64,000 nucleotides of DNA. Origin: Dictyostelium discoideum (taxonomy: Eukaryota). Where the stretch lies: NCBI GenBank assembly GCA_000004695.1, contig CM000150.2, forward strand, positions 2,976,001 through 3,040,000. The letters run 5' to 3'. The notes beneath the pieces were generated by a model, which had not been told where the DNA came from, ran no database searches, and saw nothing but the letters and a program-made list of their open reading frames with translations. This document shows, piece after piece, positions 7,180 to 58,180 of the stretch. The translations under genes were made by a program, and so were the position numbers. The number at the start of each line of letters is the position of its first letter. Position 1 is the first letter of the stretch.

Positions 7180-11875
<4,696 letters not shown>

Positions 11876-12149: not shown

Positions 12150-12932
12150 ATGGTAATTTCTTCAGATCAAGAACAACTTTTATCTTCAACAGAAGATCAG
12201 CTATTACAATACCAACAACAACATCAACAATCACAATTATCAGAACAACCACAACATATAATACCAATTGGACCACCACAAAATGTATTACCGATGGGAA
12301 AATATAAAATTCCAGAAACTTTTTCATGTAATATATTTACAGGTTATGAAAACCCAACAACTTGTCCAACTGAAATATCAAACTATTTATCATTTGATGA
12401 ATATAATTCATTGGTTATTTCATTAAATAATAAAATGGATACCTTCCATAGAAACTATTGGATCTCCTTTATTATTTATATTATTGTTGTTTTATTGTTT
12501 TACTGTTCATTTTTTATTATATATTCAGATAAAATATTTTTAATACTTGGTTTATTACTTACTGCTATAATATCAATAGCTTTCTTTTTAAATTATTTAC
12601 AAAAAAGGGTAAGTTAAGAAATCATTTTTAAAATAATATAAAAATTAAAAAAAAAAAAAAAGTGAGGAAAAATTTATTTATAAATATTCTAAAAATAAAA
12701 ATAGAATTTTGAAAATATTAAAAAGATTTGTAAAGAATATACTGTTCAATTTTCCAATAGAAATATTAAAGTTGAAACTACTAAAAAACAATTTAAGGTC
12801 AGTGTACATATCAATTATCCACAAAATACTTTTGTTTTATCACAACAATATCTCCAACCACAATTTCAACAATTTCAACCAATTTATCGCCAAAACATTT
12901 GTCAACCACAACAACAACAGCAACAACAATAA
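12150..12932 (+). CDS. Lineage-specific small membrane protein, paralog A; join(12150..12608,12705..12932), about 228 aa; Gln-rich N-terminus, conserved middle domain, one TM segment, QPQF/Q-rich tail
   Basis: Exon 1 is the track ORF ending at a gtaagttaag donor (12609). Exon 2 follows the acceptor aaaaatag at 12704 and reads NFENIKKICKEYTVQFSNRNIKVETTKKQFKVSVHINYPQN..QQQQQQQ to a stop at 12930. Confidence 0.6.
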
Positions 12933-13309
12933 ATAAAGTTCCTTTTATTCAAAATTAATAACTTAGTTTCCAAATTTAATACATTGAAAATTTCTGTTTA
13001 AAAAAATAAATAAAAAAAACAAGAAAAAAAAAAAATATTTAAGGAAAAAGAAAAAAAAAATAATTGGAATGATCTTTGGAAATTATTTTTTTTTATTTTT
13101 TTTTTAATTTTTTTATTTTTTTTTCTTCTTTTTTTAAGCACCAATTTTTGATCAAATTTTTTTTTTGTTTTTTTTTTATTTTAATTTTATTTTTTGTTTT
13201 TTTTTTTTCTCAAAAAACCACCAATTTTTTAATTTATTTTTTTTGTTTTTTTTTTTTTTTCACACATTATTTTTTTTTTTTATTATTTCTCTCTCATAAA
13301 ATAACAATA

Positions 13310-14097
13310 ATGGGAATTTCTTTAGATCAAGAACAACTTTTATCTTCAGCAGAACAACAACAACAACAATCGCAATTATCAGAACAACCACAATATGTAA
13401 TACCAATTGGACCACAAAATGTATTACCAATGGGAAAATTTAAAATCCCAGAAACTTTTTCATGTAATAGATTTACAGGTTATGAAAAACCAACAACATG
13501 TCCAACTGAATTATCAAACTATTTATCATTTGATGATTATAAGTCATTGGTTAATTCATTAAATAATAAAATGGATTCCTTCCATAGACTCTATTGGTGT
13601 TCCATTATCGTCTATATGGTTCTTATTTTCTCTTGTTCATTTTCTGGTGTTTTTATAGGTGTGATATTTTTAGTGGTTAGTATAATACTTATTGTTGCCG
13701 TCTTTCTTTGCTTTTTATTTTATTTACAAAATAGAGTAAGTTAAGGAATCATATAAAAAATTTAAAAAAAAATAAAAAAGGTGAGAAAGTTTTTTTATTA
13801 ACATTCTAAAAATAAAAATAGATTTTTGAAAATATTAAAAAGATTTGTAATGAATATAATGTTCAATTTTCCAATAGAAATATAAAATTTGAGGTCGCTA
13901 AAAAACAATTTAAGATCAGTGTACATATCAATTATCCACAAAATATTTCCTTTGTTTTACCACAATATCTCCAACCACAATTCCAACCACAATTTCAACC
14001 ACAATTTCAACCACAATTTCAACCACAATTCCAACCACAATTTCAACAACAACCAATTTACCATCAAAACATTTATCAACCACAACAACAACAATAA
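13310..14097 (+). CDS. Lineage-specific small membrane protein, paralog B (tandem duplicate of 12150..12932); join(13310..13735,13822..14097), about 233 aa with a (QPQF)6 tail
   Basis: Same architecture as paralog A. The gtaagttaag donor and aaaaatag acceptor sit at homologous positions, and exon 2 reads IFENIKKICNEYNVQFSNRNIKFEVAKKQFKISVHINYPQN..QPQFQPQFQPQF... Exon 1 is about 70% identical to paralog A (IPIGPQNVLPMGKFKIPETFSCN.FTGYE.PTTCPTE.SNYLSFD). Confidence 0.6.
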
Positions 14098-14410: not shown

Positions 14411-17015
14411 TTATACGTCTGGATGATCACGTTTGTATTCAGCATAAAGGGTATCAATAATGGTTTGATATCTTTCTTTGAGTTGTGGTCTCTTTGGTTT
14501 GAATGATGGAGTTAATAAATTGTTTTCCTCAGTGAATGGTTCATGTTCTACGTAGATATGTTTTAATTTTTCAAAACCATGTAATTTGGCTTCGGCAGCG
14601 CAAGCATCGAAACTTGATAAAATTTCTTTGTAGAGTTCTTTTGATTTTGCGAGGGTTGCATGGTTTGAAACATCAAGTTCTGGATATTTGGAAGCGAATA
14701 ATTTTTGGACAACTTCAAAATCTGGTACGACAACACCAACCAAGAAACTATTTAATGAATCACCATAGACAAATACTTGAGAGGCAAATGGTGAACGAAC
14801 GAAAACAGATTCCAAATATTCGGCGGCAACGTATTCACCTTGAGATAATTTGAAGATATTTTTCTTACGATCAATGATTGAGAGGGTACCATTTTCATTC
14901 CAACGACCAATATCACCAGTATGGAACCAACCATCTTCTTTGAGATCTTCTTTGGTCTTTTCTGGATCCTTAAAGTAACCTTTGAAAACGTTGAAACCAC
15001 GAATACAAACCTCACCTCTTGGACATGGTTTATCAGTAGAGAAATAGTTCATCTCTGGAACGTCGATTAATTTCATTTCACAGGCACTGAGTGGTGGACC
15101 AACATGACCTACATTGTTATCTTCTGGATAGGCAACAGAGGCACCACCTACATTTTCAGAGAGACCATAACCAGAGACGACTGGACAACAGAAACAAGCA
15201 CGTAAGAATTCGGCTAATTTTGGATCCAATGGAGCGGAACCGGAAAGGATGAATTTAACACGACCACCAAGTCTATCCTTTGTTTTTGAGAAAACCAATT
15301 TATCCCAAATTGGAGTGGTTGAACCAAGTCTTAATGCAGATTGTTTAGAGTTGAGACCCCAATTGAAGAGGAATTTCTTTAACCAACTATCATTGTTGAC
15401 AGTGAACCAAAGTTTGTCGTGAAGACGTTGCCATACTCTTGGGGCACCACATAAAAAGGTTGGACGTAAAACTTGGATATCGTTGAATAACTCTGGAATT
15501 AAACCAGAGAAGAAACCAATTTGACCACCAACATAACACATCAATGAAACGACGGCACGTTCAAATGAGTGAGCCAATGGGAGGTATGACATATGAACAT
15601 CCTCTGGAATTACACCTGCTGGTGAAAAGTTGGCACCTGCAACTTCACTGACCATATTTGTATGAGTTAACATTACACCCTTTGGATTACCAGTTGAACC
15701 AGAGGTGTAAAGTAATGTACATAAATCTTCTGGTGATGGGACTTCATGTTGGGCTGGATTTTGTTCACCCAATTTTTCAAAATCTGATAAGAGGTAAAGT
15801 TTAACGTTTTCATTATCCTTGAATTTATCTAATGTTGCTTGTGGTAATGGATCATAACTGACAATTGTTTTAATGGTTGTACCTGGCATTGAAAGAATCT
15901 TTTCAACATTTTTACCTTCACATAAAAGTACTGAAATCTCTGAATGATTAACAACATATTCAATTGCATTGGCACCTAATGTTGCATATAATGCAACTGG
16001 TACAAGTGAATGATTCATTGCTGCCATATCTGATAAAACCCATTCTGGTCTATTAATTGAAAAAATACCAATTCTATCACCCTTTTAATTTTTATTTATC
16101 ATTTATTATTTATAAATTATTAAAGTAATAAGTTAAATGTTAATAATAAATAAAATTAAAATAAATAAAATTAATTAATTGAAAAAAGATTTAGATATTT
16201 ATAATTTGATTAAAAAAAAAAAAAAAAAAACACAAAATGGTGTGGGGTTGGTGCACAAAATTTTTTTTTTTTTTTAAAATCAATTAACTTTTTATCAAAT
16301 TTTAAAAAAAATATCTTGGGGATTTTCATCGTTTCACAAAAAAAAAAAAAAATTTTAAAAAAAAAACCCTTTTTTCCCCGATATTTGATTTAGTTGCGGT
16401 TTTTTTTTTTGAGTGATTAACAAAGTGTTTTGAAAAAAAAAAAAAAAAGAGAAAAGTGTTTTGAAAAAAGAAAATAAAAAAAAAAAGAAAAGAAAAAAAT
16501 AAAAAAAAATAAAAAAATTATTTGTGAAAACCAAATATTAAAATATTTCTTCTTTACCTTATTTAAACCTAATTGAACTAAAGCTGAACCAATGTTATTT
16601 GCTCTAATGCATGCTTGTTTATAAGAAATCCATTTGTAATCACCTCTTTTGCCATCTGCTAATAATTCACGAATACCTAAAAAGTTTGAATCTGAATCTT
16701 TATTTATTCTTTAAATTTATTTATTATTGAAAAATATTAGAATTTAATAATCATAAAAACTTTATTTTATATTATTATTATTATTATTTATTTATTTTTT
16801 TTTTTATTTTTTTAAAAATACATACCTATAAACATCATACAAGGTAAAGGTTTTACCGTCTGGTGAATTTGTTAATTTTGGGAATTTAGTGTTTCTTCTT
16901 GGTCTAGTTTCGCCTGGTATAACTTCACTACCGTCTACTTCAACACTTTGAAGACGGATCTAAAAATAAATTCAAACAATTGTGTAATTATAGTAATAAA
17001 GTTAGTATAAATAAT

Positions 17016-26228: not shown

Positions 26229-29200
26229 ATGGAAGAAAATAGTAATAAATTTGAACAAGAATTAAAAGAAATTGGCCAAGATAGAAATCAATTTCCGCAT
26301 ATAAGTGTTGAAGAATCTCTTCAAGAATTTGATTCATTCTCAAATAAAATCGAAAATGAATCAAAACAATTTGGAGCTCAAAAAGATCCAGAATCTTATA
26401 TGGCAGGTGGTGAAACTGAAGAAGATTTCAAATTAAGAAAATATTTTGAAAACTCTGAAAGAATGCATCTTGAAAATGGTGGTAATGAAAAAAAAATGGG
26501 TGTTTCCATTAGAAATTTAACTGTTGTTGGTCTTGGTGCCGATGCATCTGTAATTGCTGATATGTCAACTCCATTTTTTAGTATTTTAAATTTTTTTAAA
26601 CCATCATTTTGGTAAGTAAAAAAATGGTATTATTATTATTATTTTAATTTTAAAGTTTACTAATTATTATTATTTTTTTTTTTATTATTTATAGGACTAA
26701 AAAAACATCAACATTTGATATTTTACATGATGTTACAACATTTTGTAAAGATGGTGAAATGGTTTTAGTTTTAGGTAGACCAGGTGCTGGTTGTTCAACT
26801 TTATTACGTGTTATTGCAAATCAAACTGCATCATATGTTTCAGTTAAAGGTGATGTTAGATATGGCGGTATTCCATCAAAAGAGTTTGAAAGATATAGAG
26901 CTGAATCTATTTATACACCAGAAGAAGATTCACATCATCCAACTTTAACAGTTCGTGAAACTTTAGATTTTGCATTAAAATGTAAAACTCCAGGTAATCG
27001 TTTACCAGATGAAACTAAAAGATCTTTCCGTGAAAAAGTTTTTAATTTATTATTATCAATGTTTGGTATTGTTCATCAAGCTGATACTGTAAGTTTTCTT
27101 TTTTTTTATTTATTTATAAAATAATTTTTTTTTTTTTTATCTTTTGCTAATTACTTTTTTTTTTTTTCCTAAATAAAATAGATTGTCGGTAATGAATATG
27201 TTAGAGGTTTATCAGGTGGTGAAAGAAAACGTTTAACAATTACAGAAGCAATGGTATCATCAGCATCAATTACATGTTGGGATTGTTCAACTCGTGGTCT
27301 TGATGCAGCATCAGCATTTGATTATGCAAAATCAATTCGTATTATGTCTGATACATTACACAAAACAACAATTGCATCATTTTATCAAGCATCCGATTCA
27401 ATTTATAATGTATTTGATAAAGTTTGTGTTTTAGAAAAAGGTCGTTGTATTTATTTTGGTCCAGTTGGTATGGCAAAACAATATTTTATGAGCTTGGGTT
27501 TCGATTGTGAACCAAGAAAATCAACACCAGATTTTTTAACTGGTGTAACAAATCCACAAGAACGTATTATTAAAAAAGGTTTTGAAGGTCGTACTCCAGA
27601 AACTTCAGCCGATTTTGAAGCAGCATGGAAAAACTCTGATATATATAGAGATCAACTTCAAGAACAAAAAGAATATGAAGAATTAATTGAAAGAACTCAA
27701 CCAAAAGTTGCATTTGTTCAAGAGGTAAAAGATGAAAATAGTAAAACCAATTTCAAAAAATCACAATATACTACAAGTTTTATTACGCAAGTTGTTGCAT
27801 TAACTAAAAGAAATTTTCAATTGATTTTAAATGATAAATTTGGTCTTTTCACAAAATATCTTTCAGTATTAATTCAAGCATTTGTATATTCATCTGTTTT
27901 CTATAATATGGCAAGTGATATTAATGGTTTATTTACTAGAGGTGGTGCAATTCTTTCAGCTGTAATTTTCAATGCTTTTCTCTCTGTTGGTGAAATGTCA
28001 ATGACTTTCATTGGTCGCCGTGTCTTACAAAAACATAAGAGTTATGCTTTATATCGTCCATCTGCTTTACATATTGCACAAGTTGTTAACGATATTCCGT
28101 TTACATTACTTCAAGTATTCTTATTTTCAATTATTGCATACTTTATGTTTGGTTTGGAATATGATGGTGGTAAATTCTTTATTTTCAGTTTTACATTGGT
28201 TGGTGCAAGCTTAGCATGTACAGCACTTTTCAGATGTTTTGGTTACCTTTGTCCATCGATGTATATCGCTCAAAATATTTCAAATGTTTTCATCATTTTC
28301 ATGCTTACCTATTCTGGTTATACAGTACCAATTCCAAAAATGCATCCATGGTTCAGTTGGTTTAGACATATCAATATCTTTACCTATGCATTTAAAGCAA
28401 TTATGGCAAATGAATTTGAAGGTAAAGAATTTAATTGTTTAGAATCTGCAATTCCATATGGTCCAGCATATCAAGGTTCAGAGTTTGATGCATATAGAAT
28501 TTGTCCATTAGGTGGTATTGAACAAGGTAGTCTCTACTTTAAAGGTGAGTTTTATATGGATAAAACTTTAAGATTCAAAGAAGGTGAAATGTCACAAAAT
28601 GTCATCATTGTTTATTGTTGGTGGATTTTCTTTGTAATTTGTAATATGCTTGCAATGGAATATATTGATCATACAAGTGGCGGTTATACTCATAAAGTTT
28701 ACAAAAAAGGTAAAGCTCCAAAAATGAATGATGTTGAAGAAGAAAAACAACAAAATGCCATTGTAGCAAATGCAACAAACAACATGAAAGATACTCTTCA
28801 TATGGATGGTGGTATTTTCACATGGCAAAACATTAGATACACTGTCAAAGTTCCAGGTGGTGAAAGATTATTATTAAACAATATTGAAGGTTGGATTAAA
28901 CCAGGTCAAATGACAGCTTTAATGGGTTCATCGGGTGCTGGTAAAACAACTTTACTCGATGTTTTAGCAAAGAGAAAAACTTTGGGTGTTGTTGAAGGTG
29001 ATTCACATTTAAATGGTAGAGAATTAGAAATTGATTTTGAACGTATTACTGGTTATGTAGAACAAATGGATGTCCACAATCCAGGTTTAACAGTTAGAGA
29101 AGCATTACGTTTCTCTGCAAAATTACGTCAAGAACCAGAGGTATCATTAGAAGAGAAATTTAAATATGTTGAACATGTTTTAGAAATGATGGAAATGAAA

Positions 29201-30724
29201 CATTTAGGTGATGCATTAATTGGTACATTAGAAACTGGTGTTGGTATTTCAGTTGAAGAAAGAAAAAGATTAACAATTGGTGTTGAATTGGTTGCAAAAC
29301 CACAAATTCTTTTCCTTGATGAACCAACATCTGGTTTAGATGCTCAATCATCATATAATATCATTAAATTTATTCGTAAATTAGCAGATGCAGGTATGCC
29401 ATTAGTTTGTACAATTCATCAACCATCATCAGTATTATTTGAACATTTTGATCGTATTCTTTTATTAGCTAAAGGTGGTAAAACAGTATATTTCGGTGAT
29501 ATTGGTGAAAAATCAAAAACTTTAACATCATACTTTGAACGTCATGGTGTTCGTCCATGTACTGAGAGTGAAAATCCAGCAGAATATATTTTAGAAGCAA
29601 CTGGTGCAGGTGTTCATGGTAAGTCTGATGTTAATTGGCCAGAAACTTGGAAACAATCACCAGAATTAGCAGATATTTCAAGGGAATTAGCAGCATTAAA
29701 AGAACAAGGTGCACAACAATATAAAATAAGAAGTGATGGACCAGCAAGAGAATTCTCACAATCAACATGGTATCAAACTAAAGAAGTTTATAAACGTTTA
29801 AATTTAATTTGGTGGAGAGATCCATACTATACATATGGTTCATTCGTTCAATCAGCACTTTGTGGTTTAATTATTGGTTTTACATTTTGGAATCTTCAAG
29901 GTTCAAGTAGTGATATGAATCAAAGAATTTTCTTTATTTTCGAAGCACTCATGTTAGGTATCTTATTGATTTTCGTTGTAATGCCACAATTAATTAGTCA
30001 GCGTGAATACTTTAAGAGAGATTTTGCCAGTAAATTCTATTCATGGTTCCCATTTGCAATTTCAATTGTTGTTGTAGAATTACCATTCATCGTTATTTCA
30101 GGTACAATTTTCTTCTTTTGTTCATTCTGGACCGCAGGATTGGATAAAACTAGTGATAGTGAACAAACCTTTTACTTCTGGTTCATTTTCGTTATCTTTT
30201 TGTTTTTCTGTGTTTCTTTCGGTCAAGCAGTAGCAGCAGTTTGTATCAATATGTTCTTTGCAATGACATTGATTCCATTGTTAATTGTTTTCCTATTTCT
30301 TTTCTCAGGAGTTATGACCCCCCCATCATCAATTCCAACCTTTTGGAGAGGATGGGTGTATCATTTAAACCCATGTCGTTACTTTATGGAAGGTATTGTT
30401 ACAAATATTTTAAAAACTGTCGATGTTAAATGTTCATATGAAGATATGATCACTTTTACATTCCCAAAGAGTTATAATACTTGTCAAAACTACACTAGTG
30501 CTTTTCAATCATATGGACCATCCGGTTATGTTGAGAGTTCCATATTAAATGGTGAACCAGCCTGTAGTTATTGTATCTATAAAAATGGTGAACAATATTA
30601 CAAAACACTTGGTTGGTCAGATGATAATCGTTGGAGAAATGTTGGTATTATCATTTGTTTCTTTGTTTTCAATATTTTAATGGTTATCTTATTTGTTTAT
30701 TTAACTAGAAAAGGAAGTAGATAA
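26229..30724 (+). CDS. Full-size ABC transporter, G family, PDR type (NBD-TMD-NBD-TMD), copy 1; join(26229..26611,26695..27088,27182..30724), 1439 aa
   Basis: Three track ORFs are joined by two gtaagt introns, phase-checked (TG|G gives Trp; ..ADT|[18 protein letters not shown]). Both NBDs show Walker A (GRPGAGCST and GSSGAGKTT), signature (LSGGERKR and VEERKRL) and Walker B, and there are two 6-TM domains. Confidence 0.9.
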
Positions 30725-32381: not shown

Positions 32382-32411
32382 AACGATCTTATTCTTATTT
32401 TTTCATAAAAG

Positions 32412-32483
32412 CTCCCCATTCGGGAATCGAACCCGAGGTACCAGTGTGAAAGACTAGAGTGTTACCGACTACACCAATGAGGA
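32412..32483 (-). tRNA. tRNA-Glu (anticodon UUC), 72 nt plus discriminator G
   Basis: The reverse complement reads TCCTCATTGGTGTAGTCGGTAACACTCTAGTCTTTCACACTGGTACCTCGGGTTCGATTCCCGAATGGGGAG. It has a 7-bp acceptor stem, a 5-bp anticodon stem with loop CTTTCAC (U33, UUC, A37), and a T-arm TCGGG/TTCGATT/CCCGA. Confidence 0.9.
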
Positions 32484-53556: not shown

Positions 53557-56500
53557 ATGGTCCATAACAATGATGGTGATAATAATGACCAAGAAATGCA
53601 AGAGATTGGGATTAATGAAAAGAGAAGTCAATTCCCACACATAAGTGTTGAAGAATCTCGTCAAGAGTTTGACTCATTTTCAAATAATATCGAAGGAGAG
53701 TCAAAACAATTTGGAATGAATAGAGATGCTGAATCTAATATGGCAGTTGAAAGTGAAGAAGATTTTAAATTAAGAAAATATTTTGAAAATTCAAATAGAA
53801 TGCATCTTGAAAATGGTGGTAATGAAAAAAAAATGGGTGTTTCCATTAGAAATTTAACTGTTGTTGGTCTTGGTGCTGATGCATCTGTAATTGCTGATAT
53901 GTCAACTCCATTTTATGGTTTAGTTAAACTTTTTACTCCATCTTTTTGGTAAGTTTTAAATTCTTGATTTTTTTTTATTTATTTAAAAGTGTTTAGAAAA
54001 AAGAATAAAATATTGGGTGGCAATTTTTTTTTTTTATTATTTATTATTTTTTTTTTTTTTAAACAAAAGTAAGACCATCTTTTTTAAATTAACACAATTA
54101 TACTAATTATTTATTTATTTATTTATTTATTTAATTATTTTTTTTATTTTATTATTATTATTATTTATAGGACTAAAAAAACATCAACATTTGATATTTT
54201 ACATGATGTTACAACATTTTGTAAAGATGGTGAAATGGTTTTAGTTTTAGGTAGACCAGGTGCTGGTTGTTCAACATTGTTACGTGTTATTGCAAATCAA
54301 ACTGCATCATATGTTTCAGTTAAAGGTGATATTACATATGGTGGTATTCCTTCAAAAGAGTTTGAAAAATATAGAGGTGAACCTATTTATACACCAGAAG
54401 AAGATTCACATCATCCAACTTTAACAGTTCGTGAAACTTTAGATTTTGCATTAAAATGTAAAACTCCAGGTAATCGTTTACCAGATGAAACTAAAAGATC
54501 TTTCCGTGATAAAGTTTTTAATTTATTATTATCAATGTTTGGTATTGTTCATCAAGCTGATACTGTAAGTTTTCTTTTTTTTTTCTTTTTTTTTTTTATC
54601 TTTTACTAATAGGTTTTTTTTTTCCTAAATAAAATAGATTGTTGGTAATGAATTTATTAGAGGTTTATCAGGTGGTGAAAGAAAACGTTTAACAATTACA
54701 GAAGCAATGGTATCATCAGCATCAATTACATGTTGGGATTGTTCAACTCGTGGTCTCGATGCAGCATCAGCATTTGATTATGCAAAATCAATTCGTATTA
54801 TGTCTGATACATTACACAAAACAACAATTGCATCATTTTATCAAGCATCCGATTCAATTTATAATGTATTTGATAAAGTTTGTGTTTTAGAAAAAGGTCG
54901 TTGTATTTATTTTGGTCCAGTTGGTATGGCAAAACAATATTTTATGAGCTTGGGTTTCGATTGTGAACCAAGAAAATCAACACCAGATTTTTTAACTGGT
55001 GTAACAAATCCACAGGAACGTATTATTAAAAAAGGATTTGAAGGTCGTACTCCAGAAACTTCAGCAGATTTCGAAGAAGCATGGAAAAACTCTGATATAT
55101 ATAGAGATCAACTTCAAGAACAAAAAGAATATGAAGAATTAATTGAAAGAACTCAACCAAAAGTTGCATTTGTTCAAGAGGTTAGGGATGCAAATAGTAA
55201 AACCAATTTCAAAAAATCACAATATACAACAAGTTTTGTTACTCAAGTTATTGCATTAATTAAAAGAAATTTTGCATTGGTTTTAAATGATAAGTTTGGT
55301 ATGTACTCTAAATATCTCTCAGTTTTAATTCAAGGTTTCGTTTATGCTTCACTTTTCTATAATATGGATACAGATATTACTGGTTTATTTACTAGAGGTG
55401 GTGCAATTCTTTCAGCTGTAATTTTCAATGCTTTTCTCTCCATTGGTGAAATGGCAATGACTTTCTATGGTCGTCGTGTTTTACAAAAACATAAGAGTTA
55501 TGCTTTATATCGTCCATCTGCTTTACATATTGCACAAGTTGTAACTGATATTCCATTCACAGCAATTCAAGTATTCTTATTTTCAATTATTGCATACTTT
55601 ATGTTTGGTTTACAATATGATGCTGGTAAATTCTTTATTTTTTGTTTTACTTTGCTTGGTGCAAGTTTAGCATGTACAGCACTTTTCAGATGTTTTGGTT
55701 ACCTTTGTCCATCGATGTATATCGCTCAAAATATTTCAAATGTTTTCATCATTTTCATGCTTACCTATTCTGGTTATACCATTCCAATTCCAAAAATGCA
55801 TCCATGGTTCAGTTGGTTTAGACATATCAATATCTTTACCTATGCATTTAAAGCATTAATGGCAAATGAATTTGAAGGTTTGGATTTTAATTGTAAAGAA
55901 TCTGCAATTCCATATGGTCCAGCATATCAAGGTTCAGAGTTTGATGCATATAGAATTTGTCCATTAGGTGGTATTGAACAAGGTAGTCTCTACTTTAAAG
56001 GTGATTTTTATATGGATAAAACTTTATCATTTGCAACTGGAGAAATGTCACAAAATGTTATCATTGTTTATTGTTGGTGGGTTTTCTTTGTAGTTTGTAA
56101 TATGTTTGCAATGGAATACATTGATCATACAAGTGGCGGTTATACTCATAAAGTTTACAAAAAAGGTAAAGCTCCAAAAATGAATGATGTTGAAGAAGAA
56201 AAACAACAAAATGCCATTGTAGCAAAAGCAACAAGTAATATGAAAGATACTCTTCATATGGATGGTGGTATTTTCACATGGCAAAACATTAGATACACTG
56301 TCAAAGTTCCAGGTGGTGAAAGATTATTATTAGATAATATTGAAGGTTGGATTAAACCAGGTCAAATGACAGCTTTAATGGGTTCATCGGGTGCTGGTAA
56401 AACAACTTTACTCGATGTTTTAGCAAAGAGAAAAACTTTGGGTGTTGTTGAAGGTGATTCACATTTAAATGGTAGAGAATTAGAAATTGATTTTGAACGT

Positions 56501-58180
56501 ATTACTGGTTATGTAGAACAAATGGATGTCCACAATCCAGGTTTAACAGTTAGAGAAGCATTACGTTTCTCTGCAAAATTACGTCAAGAACCAGAGGTAT
56601 CATTAGAAGAGAAATTTAAATATGTTGAACATGTTTTAGAAATGATGGAAATGAAACATTTAGGTGATGCATTAATTGGTACATTAGAAACTGGTGTTGG
56701 TATTTCAGTTGAAGAAAGAAAAAGATTAACAATTGGTGTTGAATTGGTTGCAAAACCACAAATTCTTTTCCTTGATGAACCAACATCTGGTTTAGATGCT
56801 CAATCATCATATAATATCATTAAATTTATTCGTAAATTAGCAGATGCAGGTATGCCATTAGTTTGTACAATTCATCAACCATCATCAGTATTATTTGAAC
56901 ATTTTGATCGTATTCTTTTATTAGCTAAAGGTGGTAAAACAGTATATTTCGGTGATATTGGTGAAAAATCAAAAACTTTAACATCATACTTTGAACGTCA
57001 TGGTGTTCGTCCATGTACTGAGAGTGAAAATCCAGCAGAATATATTTTAGAAGCAACTGGTGCAGGTGTTCATGGTAAGTCTGATGTTAATTGGCCAGAA
57101 GCTTGGAAACAATCACCAGAGTTAGCCGATATTTCAAGGGAATTAGCAGCATTAAAAGAACAAGGTGCACAACAATATAAACCAAGAAGTGATGGACCAG
57201 CAAGAGAATTCTCACAATCAACATGGTATCAAACTAAAGAAGTTTATAAACGTTTAAATTTAATTTGGTGGAGAGATCCATACTATACATATGGTTCATT
57301 CGTTCAAGCTGCACTATGTGGTTTAATTATTGGTTTTACATTTTGGAATCTTCAAGGTTCAAGTAGTGATATGAATCAAAGAATTTTCTTTATTTTCGAA
57401 GCACTCATGTTAGGTATCTTATTGATTTTCGTTGTAATGCCACAATTAATTATCCAACGTGAATACTTTAAGAGAGATTTTGCCAGTAAATTCTATTCAT
57501 GGTTCCCATTTGCAATTTCAATTGTTGTTGTAGAATTACCGTTCATTGTTATTTCAGGTACAATCTTCTTCTTTTGTTCATTCTGGACTGCAGGATTACA
57601 TAAAACTAGTGACGATGAACAAACCTTTTATTTCTGGTTCATTTTCATTATCTTTATGTTTTTCTGTGTTTCTTTCGGTCAAGCAGTAGCAGCAGTTTGT
57701 ATCAATATGTTCTTTGCAATGACATTGATTCCATTGTTAATTGTTTTCCTATTTCTTTTCTGTGGAGTGATGGTCCCCCCATCATCAATTCCAACCTTTT
57801 GGAGAGGATGGGTGTATCATTTAAACCCATGTCGTTACTTTATGGAAGGTATTATCACAAATATTTTAAAAACTGTCCGTGTCGAGTGCTCTGAAGAAGA
57901 TATGGCCATTTTTACATTCCCAAAGAGTTATAATACTTGTCAAAACTATACTAGTGCTTTTCAATCATATAAACCATCCGGCTATGTTGAGAGTGCTACA
58001 TTAAATGGGGAACCAGCATGTGGTTATTGTATCTATAAAAATGGTGAAGAATATTACGAAACACTTGGTTGGTCAGCTGATAATCGTTGGAGAAATGTTG
58101 GTATTATCATTGGTTTCTTTGTTTTCAATATTTTAATGGTTATCCTATTTGTTTACTTAACTAGAAAAGGAAGTAGATAA
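53557..58180 (+). CDS. Full-size ABC transporter, G family, PDR type, copy 2 (tandem paralog of 26229..30724); join(53557..53948,54171..54564,54638..58180), 1442 aa
   Basis: Identical exon/intron architecture and exon lengths for exons 2 and 3 (394 and 3543 nt). All motifs are as in copy 1. Exon 3 is about 97% identical to copy 1; exon 1 is about 70% identical. Confidence 0.9.

Follow-up and report, generated by a model that had tools for sequence, protein, structure and literature searches.

Tandem two-exon genes at the locus

Two adjacent genes, here termed A and B, lie on the + strand of a 64,000 nucleotide stretch of Dictyostelium discoideum DNA (contig CM000150.2 of GCA_000004695.1; hereafter the window), which has a G+C content of ~20% and contains coding tracts of poly-Asn/Gln. 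We consider it rather probable that their products are tandem, very divergent, dictyostelid-specific integral-membrane accessory subunits of DHHC S-acyltransferases, of the GOLGA7/Erf4 type. An earlier note, prepared from the sequence alone, had described the pair as a tandem duplication encoding an orphan membrane protein with one hydrophobic helix. Both paralogues are present, with spliced products of 228 (A) and 233 (B) amino acids (aa), and the duplication is evident from a BLASTP alignment with 67% identity over 203 aa (E 3e-78).

Gene A begins with a 153-codon exon (12150..12608; coordinates are those of the window) that encodes a Q-rich N-terminus, Erf4-like N-terminal strands and helix, and a hydrophobic hairpin. 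Within this exon a conserved N-domain, predicted to be cytosolic, occupies 12282..12455 (approximately residues 45-102) and carries the Erf4/GOLGA7 sequence signal; it was delimited from the stretch matched by the Pfam Erf4 model (residues 70-123), from the match to GOLGA7 17-66 in a profile search of the PDB, and from the strands and helix start of the AlphaFold2 (AF2) model. The two-helix hairpin follows at 12456..12602 (residues 103-151, with an SDK turn at 126-128), as judged by Kyte-Doolittle windows, uncharged runs and AF2. After a 96 nt, phase 0 intron (12609..12704, GTAAGT...AATAG), exon 2 (12705..12932, 75 codons plus stop) encodes the end of the predicted cytosolic helix, two C-terminal beta-strands and a short Q/P-rich tail. 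Gene B has the same layout. Its exon 1 (13310..13735, codons 1-142) includes the predicted cytosolic N-domain at 13415..13588 (approximately residues 36-93; Pfam Erf4 stretch at residues 62-106, AF2 strands at 41-45, 48-51 and 54-58) and a hairpin at 13589..13732 (residues 94-141) devoid of charged residues; an 86 nt, phase 0 intron (13736..13821, again GTAAGT...AATAG) separates it from exon 2 (13822..14097, 91 codons plus stop). The QPQF tail recognised previously, with six units in B, corresponds to a 12 nt tandem array, CAACCACAATTT, detected by Tandem Repeats Finder at 13972..14052 (6.8 copies, 94% matches), which encodes (QPQF)6 in the predicted cytosolic tail. Its copy number and pattern differ among three genomes, those of the window and of two other assemblies.

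The introns had been placed at an identical codon, and in both genes GTAAGTTAAG indeed stands immediately 3' of ..QKR (A) or ..QNR (B), the Arg codon directly before the donor closing the hydrophobic region; both introns end in ..AAAATAG. The predicted junctions, 12608/12705 and 13735/13822, coincide exactly with those proposed in the earlier note, and its warning that the list of open reading frames (ORFs) misleads at exon 2 is justified: an in-frame TAA follows each donor and the true exon 2 frame lacks a start codon, so that only wrong-frame ORFs are listed there. Four indirect lines of evidence support this splice model. Two further assemblies, GCA_054859235.1 (D. cf. discoideum) and GCA_054859355.1 (D. 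discoideum), contain the same tandem pair in the same synteny, and the called products (A/B lengths of 229/245 aa and 221/238 aa, respectively) match GTAAGT...AATAG models exactly in coordinates and length; the B orthologues (L001 7124-7971 and L002 7152-7944) were called independently with the same two-exon structure. Exon 2 shows 91% identity between the two genes, and within D. discoideum it evolves under purifying selection. Two paralogues that are ~25% identical (P0006 and P0010, introduced below) possess a phase 0 intron at the homologous position, flanked by ..TRNRR/FVENLK and ..LFYKR/MDAKMQ, as compared with ..YLQKR/NFENIK. In the structure models, exon 2 supplies the two strands needed to complete a beta-sheet with those at the N-terminus.

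All 228 residues of the gene A product are the same as in D. discoideum AX4 DDB_G0270554 (XP_646063.1, UniProt Q55DR8), which is already annotated with the same exon structure and is named only as hypothetical or "Transmembrane protein". This match agrees with a D. discoideum origin of the window, most likely from chromosome 1. Exact look-ups of B, of a read-through model of B and of both B orthologues in the protein collection returned no match. The notion that B is an unannotated gene was dropped; B orthologues that have demonstrably been called in the two other assemblies are equally absent from the collection, and the absence of B is therefore uninformative. A tblastn search with all family members revealed no third copy within the window. 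Literature searches returned nothing on DDB_G0270554, Dictyostelium GOLGA7/Erf4 or Dictyostelium DHHC accessory proteins, and nothing relevant on Dictyostelium DHHC enzymes.

Relationship to the GOLGA7/Erf4 family

An exhaustive HMMER search of 1.84 billion representative proteins with a profile of the A/B core returned eight proteins at E<1e-3. Seven come from dictyostelids, namely gene A (P0002) and six relatives with the architecture of A and B. These are P0006 (D. discoideum ACTFIW_009825), P0009 (D. firmibasis RB653_007051), P0010 (D. cf. discoideum ACTFIY_000353), P0007 (D. citrinum), P0012 (D. dimigraforme) and P0011 (Polysphondylium violaceum). The profile reaches the dictyostelid paralogues at E 5.9e-11 to 6.6e-4; word-indexed protein searches missed most of the paralogues and yielded no more than orthologues of A from the D. 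discoideum group. Judged by sequence, the family is confined to dictyostelids, in agreement with the lineage specificity claimed previously. The eighth match, a Taraxacum kok-saghyz protein of 2628 aa (P0008), aligns with profile positions 7-55 in five separate stretches (E 5.4e-5) and could be a contaminant, an artefact of low complexity or a protein in which an Erf4-like N-domain is repeated.

Orphan status does not hold, since the pair appears to belong, as a divergent branch, to Pfam PF10256 (Golgin subfamily A member 7/ERF4), a known domain of the kind that the earlier note itself named as grounds for abandoning its view. PF10256 is matched by seven of the ten aligned family members, more than match any other Pfam family. 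P0006, P0009 and P0010 score 27.6, 28.5 and 28.2 bits (E ~2e-6), and the hidden Markov model (HMM) consensus of the ten-member family, A and B included, reaches 30.8 bits (E 3.2e-7), above the Pfam gathering cut-off of 29.3 bits. Precomputed assignments to PF10256 exist for P0009, with a weak one for P0010 and a faint one for P0006. When 177,635 PDB sequences were searched with the family profile, the human GOLGA7 chains 8hf3_B and 9oa6_B ranked first; a shallower profile built from four sequences (A, B and their orthologues) did not find GOLGA7 in the PDB, which the ten-sequence profile did.

Alignment by hhalign against vertebrate GOLGA7 covers the N-terminal 50 columns at E 0.001. At a permissive alignment threshold this extends to a colinear 124 columns (E 1.3e-4, probability 54%), in which the sole large gap is an insertion of ~22 residues in the dictyostelid hairpin; the C-terminal domain alone aligned over nine columns. 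On the HMM, profile and fold evidence, homology of the A/B family to GOLGA7/Erf4 is very probable. The link to PF10256 holds at the level of the family, through its consensus and through transitive homologues, whereas the individual Pfam scores of A and B fall short of the cut-off.

Predicted fold, hydrophobic hairpin and topology

The AF2 models have predicted local distance difference test (pLDDT) scores of 81.9 and 81.8, with the elements ordered E-E-E-H-H-E-E, and each protein is predicted to adopt the GOLGA7 fold. One to three N-terminal beta-strands and the two C-terminal strands from exon 2 form a small antiparallel sheet in the models, and two long helices bear a hydrophobic helical hairpin at their tip. 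The predicted structures thus contain the N-terminal and two C-terminal strands, the two cytosolic helices and the membrane-entering helix pair by which the fold is recognised (10.1101/2022.12.12.520165).

The region previously interpreted as a single hydrophobic helix comprises 46-50 uncharged residues (103-151 in A, 94-141 in B), for which AF2 gives two helices of ~40 residues separated by a turn of 2-5 residues; in the core of A these are H40-81 and H84-126, followed by the C-terminal strands E133-139 and E142-150. In B, 46 consecutive residues lack D, E, K, R, H, Q or N, and A has uncharged runs of 24 and 19 residues with S-D-K between them. The hairpin of the paralogue P0010 is shorter (34 residues). 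Basic residues flank the hairpin on both sides (K/H/R in ..KMDSFHR, R/K in YLQNR..ENIKK), and the N-terminus of A and B is hydrophilic and Q-rich, with no hydrophobic stretch and no signal-peptide-like segment.

An N-in/C-in topology with a minimal luminal turn is predicted for both proteins, because the hydrophobic stretch has the length of two helices, is basic on both flanks and is preceded by no signal-like N-terminus. These basic flanks, together with the homology of the core to GCP16's cytosolic domain, likewise lead to the prediction that the conserved core and the Q-rich tails are cytosolic rather than surface-exposed. Neither A nor B displays the single span of ~20 residues and the outside ectodomain of a single-pass surface protein. 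Only two of the three conserved Cys residues reported for the 60-aa block occur there (FSCN and TTCP); A and B share two further Cys outside it, and no Cys is invariant across the wider family.

Comparison with GCP16, Erf4 and the dictyostelid paralogues

In cryo-electron microscopy structures of DHHC9-GCP16 and Erf2-Erf4, the accessory proteins "have no transmembrane helix" and insert two helices into the membrane, and they consist of a three-stranded sheet and two cytosolic helices (bioRxiv 10.1101/2022.12.12.520165). GCP16 and Erf4 are located opposite the active site and stabilise DHHC9 and Erf2 through four interfaces: the inserted helices with transmembrane helices 2 and 3 (TM2/TM3), a groove with a polyproline helix of the enzyme, the post-beta1' loop with the zinc fingers, and the sheet with helix alpha1 (bioRxiv 10.1101/2022.12.12.520165). 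GCP16 is produced in soluble form, and for binding to the membrane it requires S-acylation of Cys69/Cys72 (PMC13499115).

The alignment of human GOLGA7/GCP16 (8hf3_B, with ZDHHC9; 9oa6_B, deposited as "Golgin subfamily A member 7") with the A/B family is colinear from the first to the last beta-strand, at an identity of ~15%. Both are small proteins with a membrane-entering helical hairpin, and they share the N-terminal motif K-x-x-I-x-x-x-[YF]...P-x-x-L-x-N...[FY]...V..LN. All the structural elements that GCP16 uses for the four DHHC9 interfaces are present in the models of A and B. A low-confidence hhalign alignment, with little certainty in the C-terminal half, pairs K11, Y18, R118 and R121 of GCP16 with K43, F50, K170 and K173 of B. 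The Q-rich N-terminal and Q/P-rich C-terminal extensions of A and B are additional to GOLGA7, and the peripheral or re-entrant, acylation-dependent membrane association typical of the characterised PF10256 members is not predicted for A and B, which is the chief respect in which they depart from the family. Yeast Erf4/Shr5 (8hfc_B, with Erf2; PF10256) has the same combination of a beta-sheet and a membrane-inserted helix pair, but it has a long N-terminal loop and two extra strands, and it is a weaker structural match than GCP16. A and B are distant members of the GOLGA7/Erf4 superfamily, and represent a variant form rather than a new kind of system.

The dictyostelid paralogues share with A and B the Q-rich N-terminus, the N-domain, the hydrophobic hairpin, the Q/P-rich tail and the intron position, together with the motifs ..N-x-[QE]-[YF]-x-N-R-x-I-[KR].. 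and I-x-Y-P. Over the conserved core their identity to A and B is only 21-29%, and they come closer than A and B to the Pfam Erf4 model (27.6-28.5 bits). P0006, P0007, P0009 and P0012 end in acidic di-leucine-like motifs (..DSSPLI, ..ETSPLL, ..DTTPLL and ..DTAPLL, respectively) that are lacking in A and B; to judge from these sequences, the motif suggests sorting by adaptor complexes from a cytosolic C-terminus.

Divergence of the two copies

All three genomes contain both copies, which cluster by type, so the duplication is older than the split between D. discoideum and D. cf. discoideum. Nucleotide identity between A and B over aligned positions is 94% in the part encoding the cytosolic N-domain, 93% in the intron and 91% in the core of exon 2, and falls to 71.5% in the part encoding the hairpin. 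The duplicated unit is a mosaic in which the hairpin forms an island of divergence. Nei-Gojobori estimates of non-synonymous (dN) and synonymous (dS) divergence between A and B are dN 0.53 and dS 0.40 in the hairpin, as against 0.06 and 0.095 in the N-domain and 0.09 and 0.16 in the C-domain. The hairpin has a very strong non-synonymous excess (Fisher p 1e-12) and a marginal synonymous one (p 0.036). For the N-domain, paralogue dS (0.06-0.12) does not exceed orthologue dS (0.05-0.12); in the hairpin, paralogue dS is ~2.5-fold larger than orthologue dS.

The earlier note had argued from diverged termini on a conserved core that the family is fast-evolving and possibly surface-exposed. Surface exposure is contradicted by the predicted topology, but fairly fast evolution is borne out by whole-gene dN/dS values of 0.68-0.81 for orthologues of D. 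discoideum and D. cf. discoideum, these and the following ratios being indicative only, as the counts are low and dN/dS is inflated by codon bias in Dictyostelium. For the hairpin of B the ratio is 1.57 when D. discoideum is compared with D. cf. discoideum, and 0.88 within D. discoideum; the corresponding values for the hairpin of A are 0.31 and 0.25. The cytosolic domains of B have dN/dS of 0.20-0.25 within D. discoideum, and its hairpin stays uniformly hydrophobic. The mosaic fits gene conversion of the flanks and intron that spared the hairpin, and fits equally well accelerated, possibly adaptive, change in the hairpin.

A side observation concerns the tail of A. The D. cf. discoideum orthologue (L001 6001-6791) ends in ..IINHNNNNNK, as compared with ..ICQPQQQQQQQ for gene A of the window, which looks like a frame change in the CAA/AAC-rich 3' end; dN/dS in this tail is 2.7.

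Proposed function and alternative explanations

From homology and fold, we favour on balance a role for A and B as non-catalytic accessory subunits resembling GCP16 and Erf4. In such a scheme the hairpin, lengthened from ~15 uncharged residues in human GOLGA7 to 46-50, probably spans the bilayer twice with a minimal luminal turn, which would leave the N- and C-termini, the conserved domain and the tails rich in Q and P in the cytosol. The hairpin would pack on a DHHC S-acyltransferase, against its transmembrane helices, and the sheet in the cytosol would brace the zinc-finger DHHC domain, thereby stabilising the enzyme. As the proposed anchor is integral, attachment to the membrane would be independent of S-acylation, unlike that of GCP16. 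The confinement of A/B divergence to the hairpin could reflect different DHHC partners or different membranes.

Several observations weigh against this assignment. Individually, A scores 12.7 bits against the Erf4 model (E 0.13, the weakest of seven marginal Pfam matches) and B 18.2 bits (E 0.0026, its best Pfam match), both below the cut-off. The E-values of the two GOLGA7 chains in the PDB profile search, 0.28 and 0.34, are non-significant, hhalign probabilities are only 21-54%, Foldseek found no match in the PDB, and the AF2 input alignments comprised nine sequences only. The uncharged hairpin is 46-50 residues long as against ~15 in human GOLGA7, and a full membrane-spanning hairpin is foreign to the characterised family, given that GCP16 and Erf4 have no transmembrane helix. 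No Cys pair in A or B aligns with the S-acylated Cys69/Cys72 of GCP16, and the DHHC9-contact residues F13 and R16 correspond, in the low-confidence hhalign alignment, to the non-conserved K45 and E48 of B.

Some of these points, namely the restructured hairpin and the loss of certain GCP16 contact residues, would also be expected had the GOLGA7/Erf4 fold been repurposed. A and B would then have given up binding DHHC enzymes and would serve as integral-membrane scaffolds or trafficking adaptors, for example in cargo sorting or membrane organisation through the cytosolic domain and Q/P-rich tail. The acidic di-leucine-like ends (..D-S/T-x-P-L-L/I) of several paralogues suggest adaptor-dependent sorting, and the existence of at least five dictyostelid paralogue lineages leaves room for neofunctionalisation. 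We nevertheless regard repurposing as unlikely: the beta-sheet, the post-beta1 loop, the hairpin and the inter-helix groove, which between them provide the four DHHC9 interfaces, are all kept in the models, basic residues align with R118 and R121 of GCP16 and an aromatic residue with Y18, and no positive evidence was found for any other function. Far less credible is the original picture of an orphan, single-pass, possibly surface-exposed family, for which the Erf4 signals would have to be chance and the AF2 fold an artefact. It draws on the sub-threshold Pfam scores of A and B, the failure of Foldseek to find a match, the rapid non-synonymous evolution and the nearly exclusive confinement of detectable relatives to dictyostelids, with one plant match; it is largely refuted by a hydrophobic region double the length of one transmembrane helix and by the absence of a signal peptide.

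A different objection is that A alone is functional and that B, as a duplicate, is decaying or functionally relaxed, as might be read from the raised dN/dS of the B hairpin relative to that of A and from the failure to find the B protein in the protein collection. The latter point carries no information, for the reason given above, and the reading frame, both splice sites and the stop codon of B are intact in three genomes. Since its cytosolic domains are constrained and its hairpin, remaining uniformly hydrophobic, has changed in a manner constrained in kind, pseudogenisation of B is unlikely, and we consider loss of function in this copy improbable overall.

Interpretation of A and B as accessory subunits provides a testable function for DDB_G0270554, for its tandem twin and for their dictyostelid paralogues, in an organism whose protein S-acylation machinery is almost unstudied. 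If a relative of GOLGA7/Erf4 is indeed anchored by its own membrane-spanning hairpin, S-acylation-dependent anchoring would be dispensable for this class of subunit. Near-identical cytosolic domains combined with very different hairpins also make the pair a natural experiment on the role of the hairpin in the choice of DHHC partner. A bolder extension, which we put forward tentatively and with considerable doubt, is that dictyostelids turned a peripheral, S-acylation-dependent GOLGA7/Erf4 protein into a multigene family of small integral-membrane hairpin proteins. The cytosolic domain and intron of A and B would then have stayed near-identical, possibly through gene conversion, as the hairpin diverged faster than the intron, and the hairpin would be a specificity element, a partner-swap module that assigns each paralogue to its DHHC enzyme or membrane. 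These findings do not overturn current understanding, but they offer a useful assignment in a little-studied pathway of a model organism.

Genomic neighbourhood

The upstream neighbour of gene A is a Pre-SET/SET methyltransferase gene (10082-11875, + strand), and directly downstream of gene B, in convergent orientation, lies a gene for an AMP-binding acyl-CoA synthetase (14411-16027, - strand). The latter was considered as a functional link, through the supply of palmitoyl-CoA as DHHC substrate, and was given zero weight, the adjacency being known from three closely related genomes only. There is no DHHC gene within the window.

The Pre-SET/SET ORF is preceded on the same strand by a 956-aa ORF (7180-10050, + strand) without a Pfam match. 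In other assemblies a single gene of 1521-1614 aa occupies the position of this ORF pair, and the two are probably exons of one histone-methyltransferase gene. A second pair of paralogues in the window consists of two PDR/ABCG-type ABC transporter ORFs (27251-30724 and 54707-58180, both + strand), which lie ~27 kb apart, encode 1157 aa each and both match ABC2_membrane, PDR_CDR and ABC_tran. A tRNA-Glu(TTC) gene is located at 32411-32483 (- strand).

The spacer between genes A and B (12933..13309) is of low complexity, A-rich and then T-rich, and presumably contains the 3' end of A and the promoter of B. Its T-rich part includes a repeat with an 80 nt period at 13086-13291 (2.6 copies), which contains the repeated ACCACCAATTTTT and may be a promoter element or mere low complexity.

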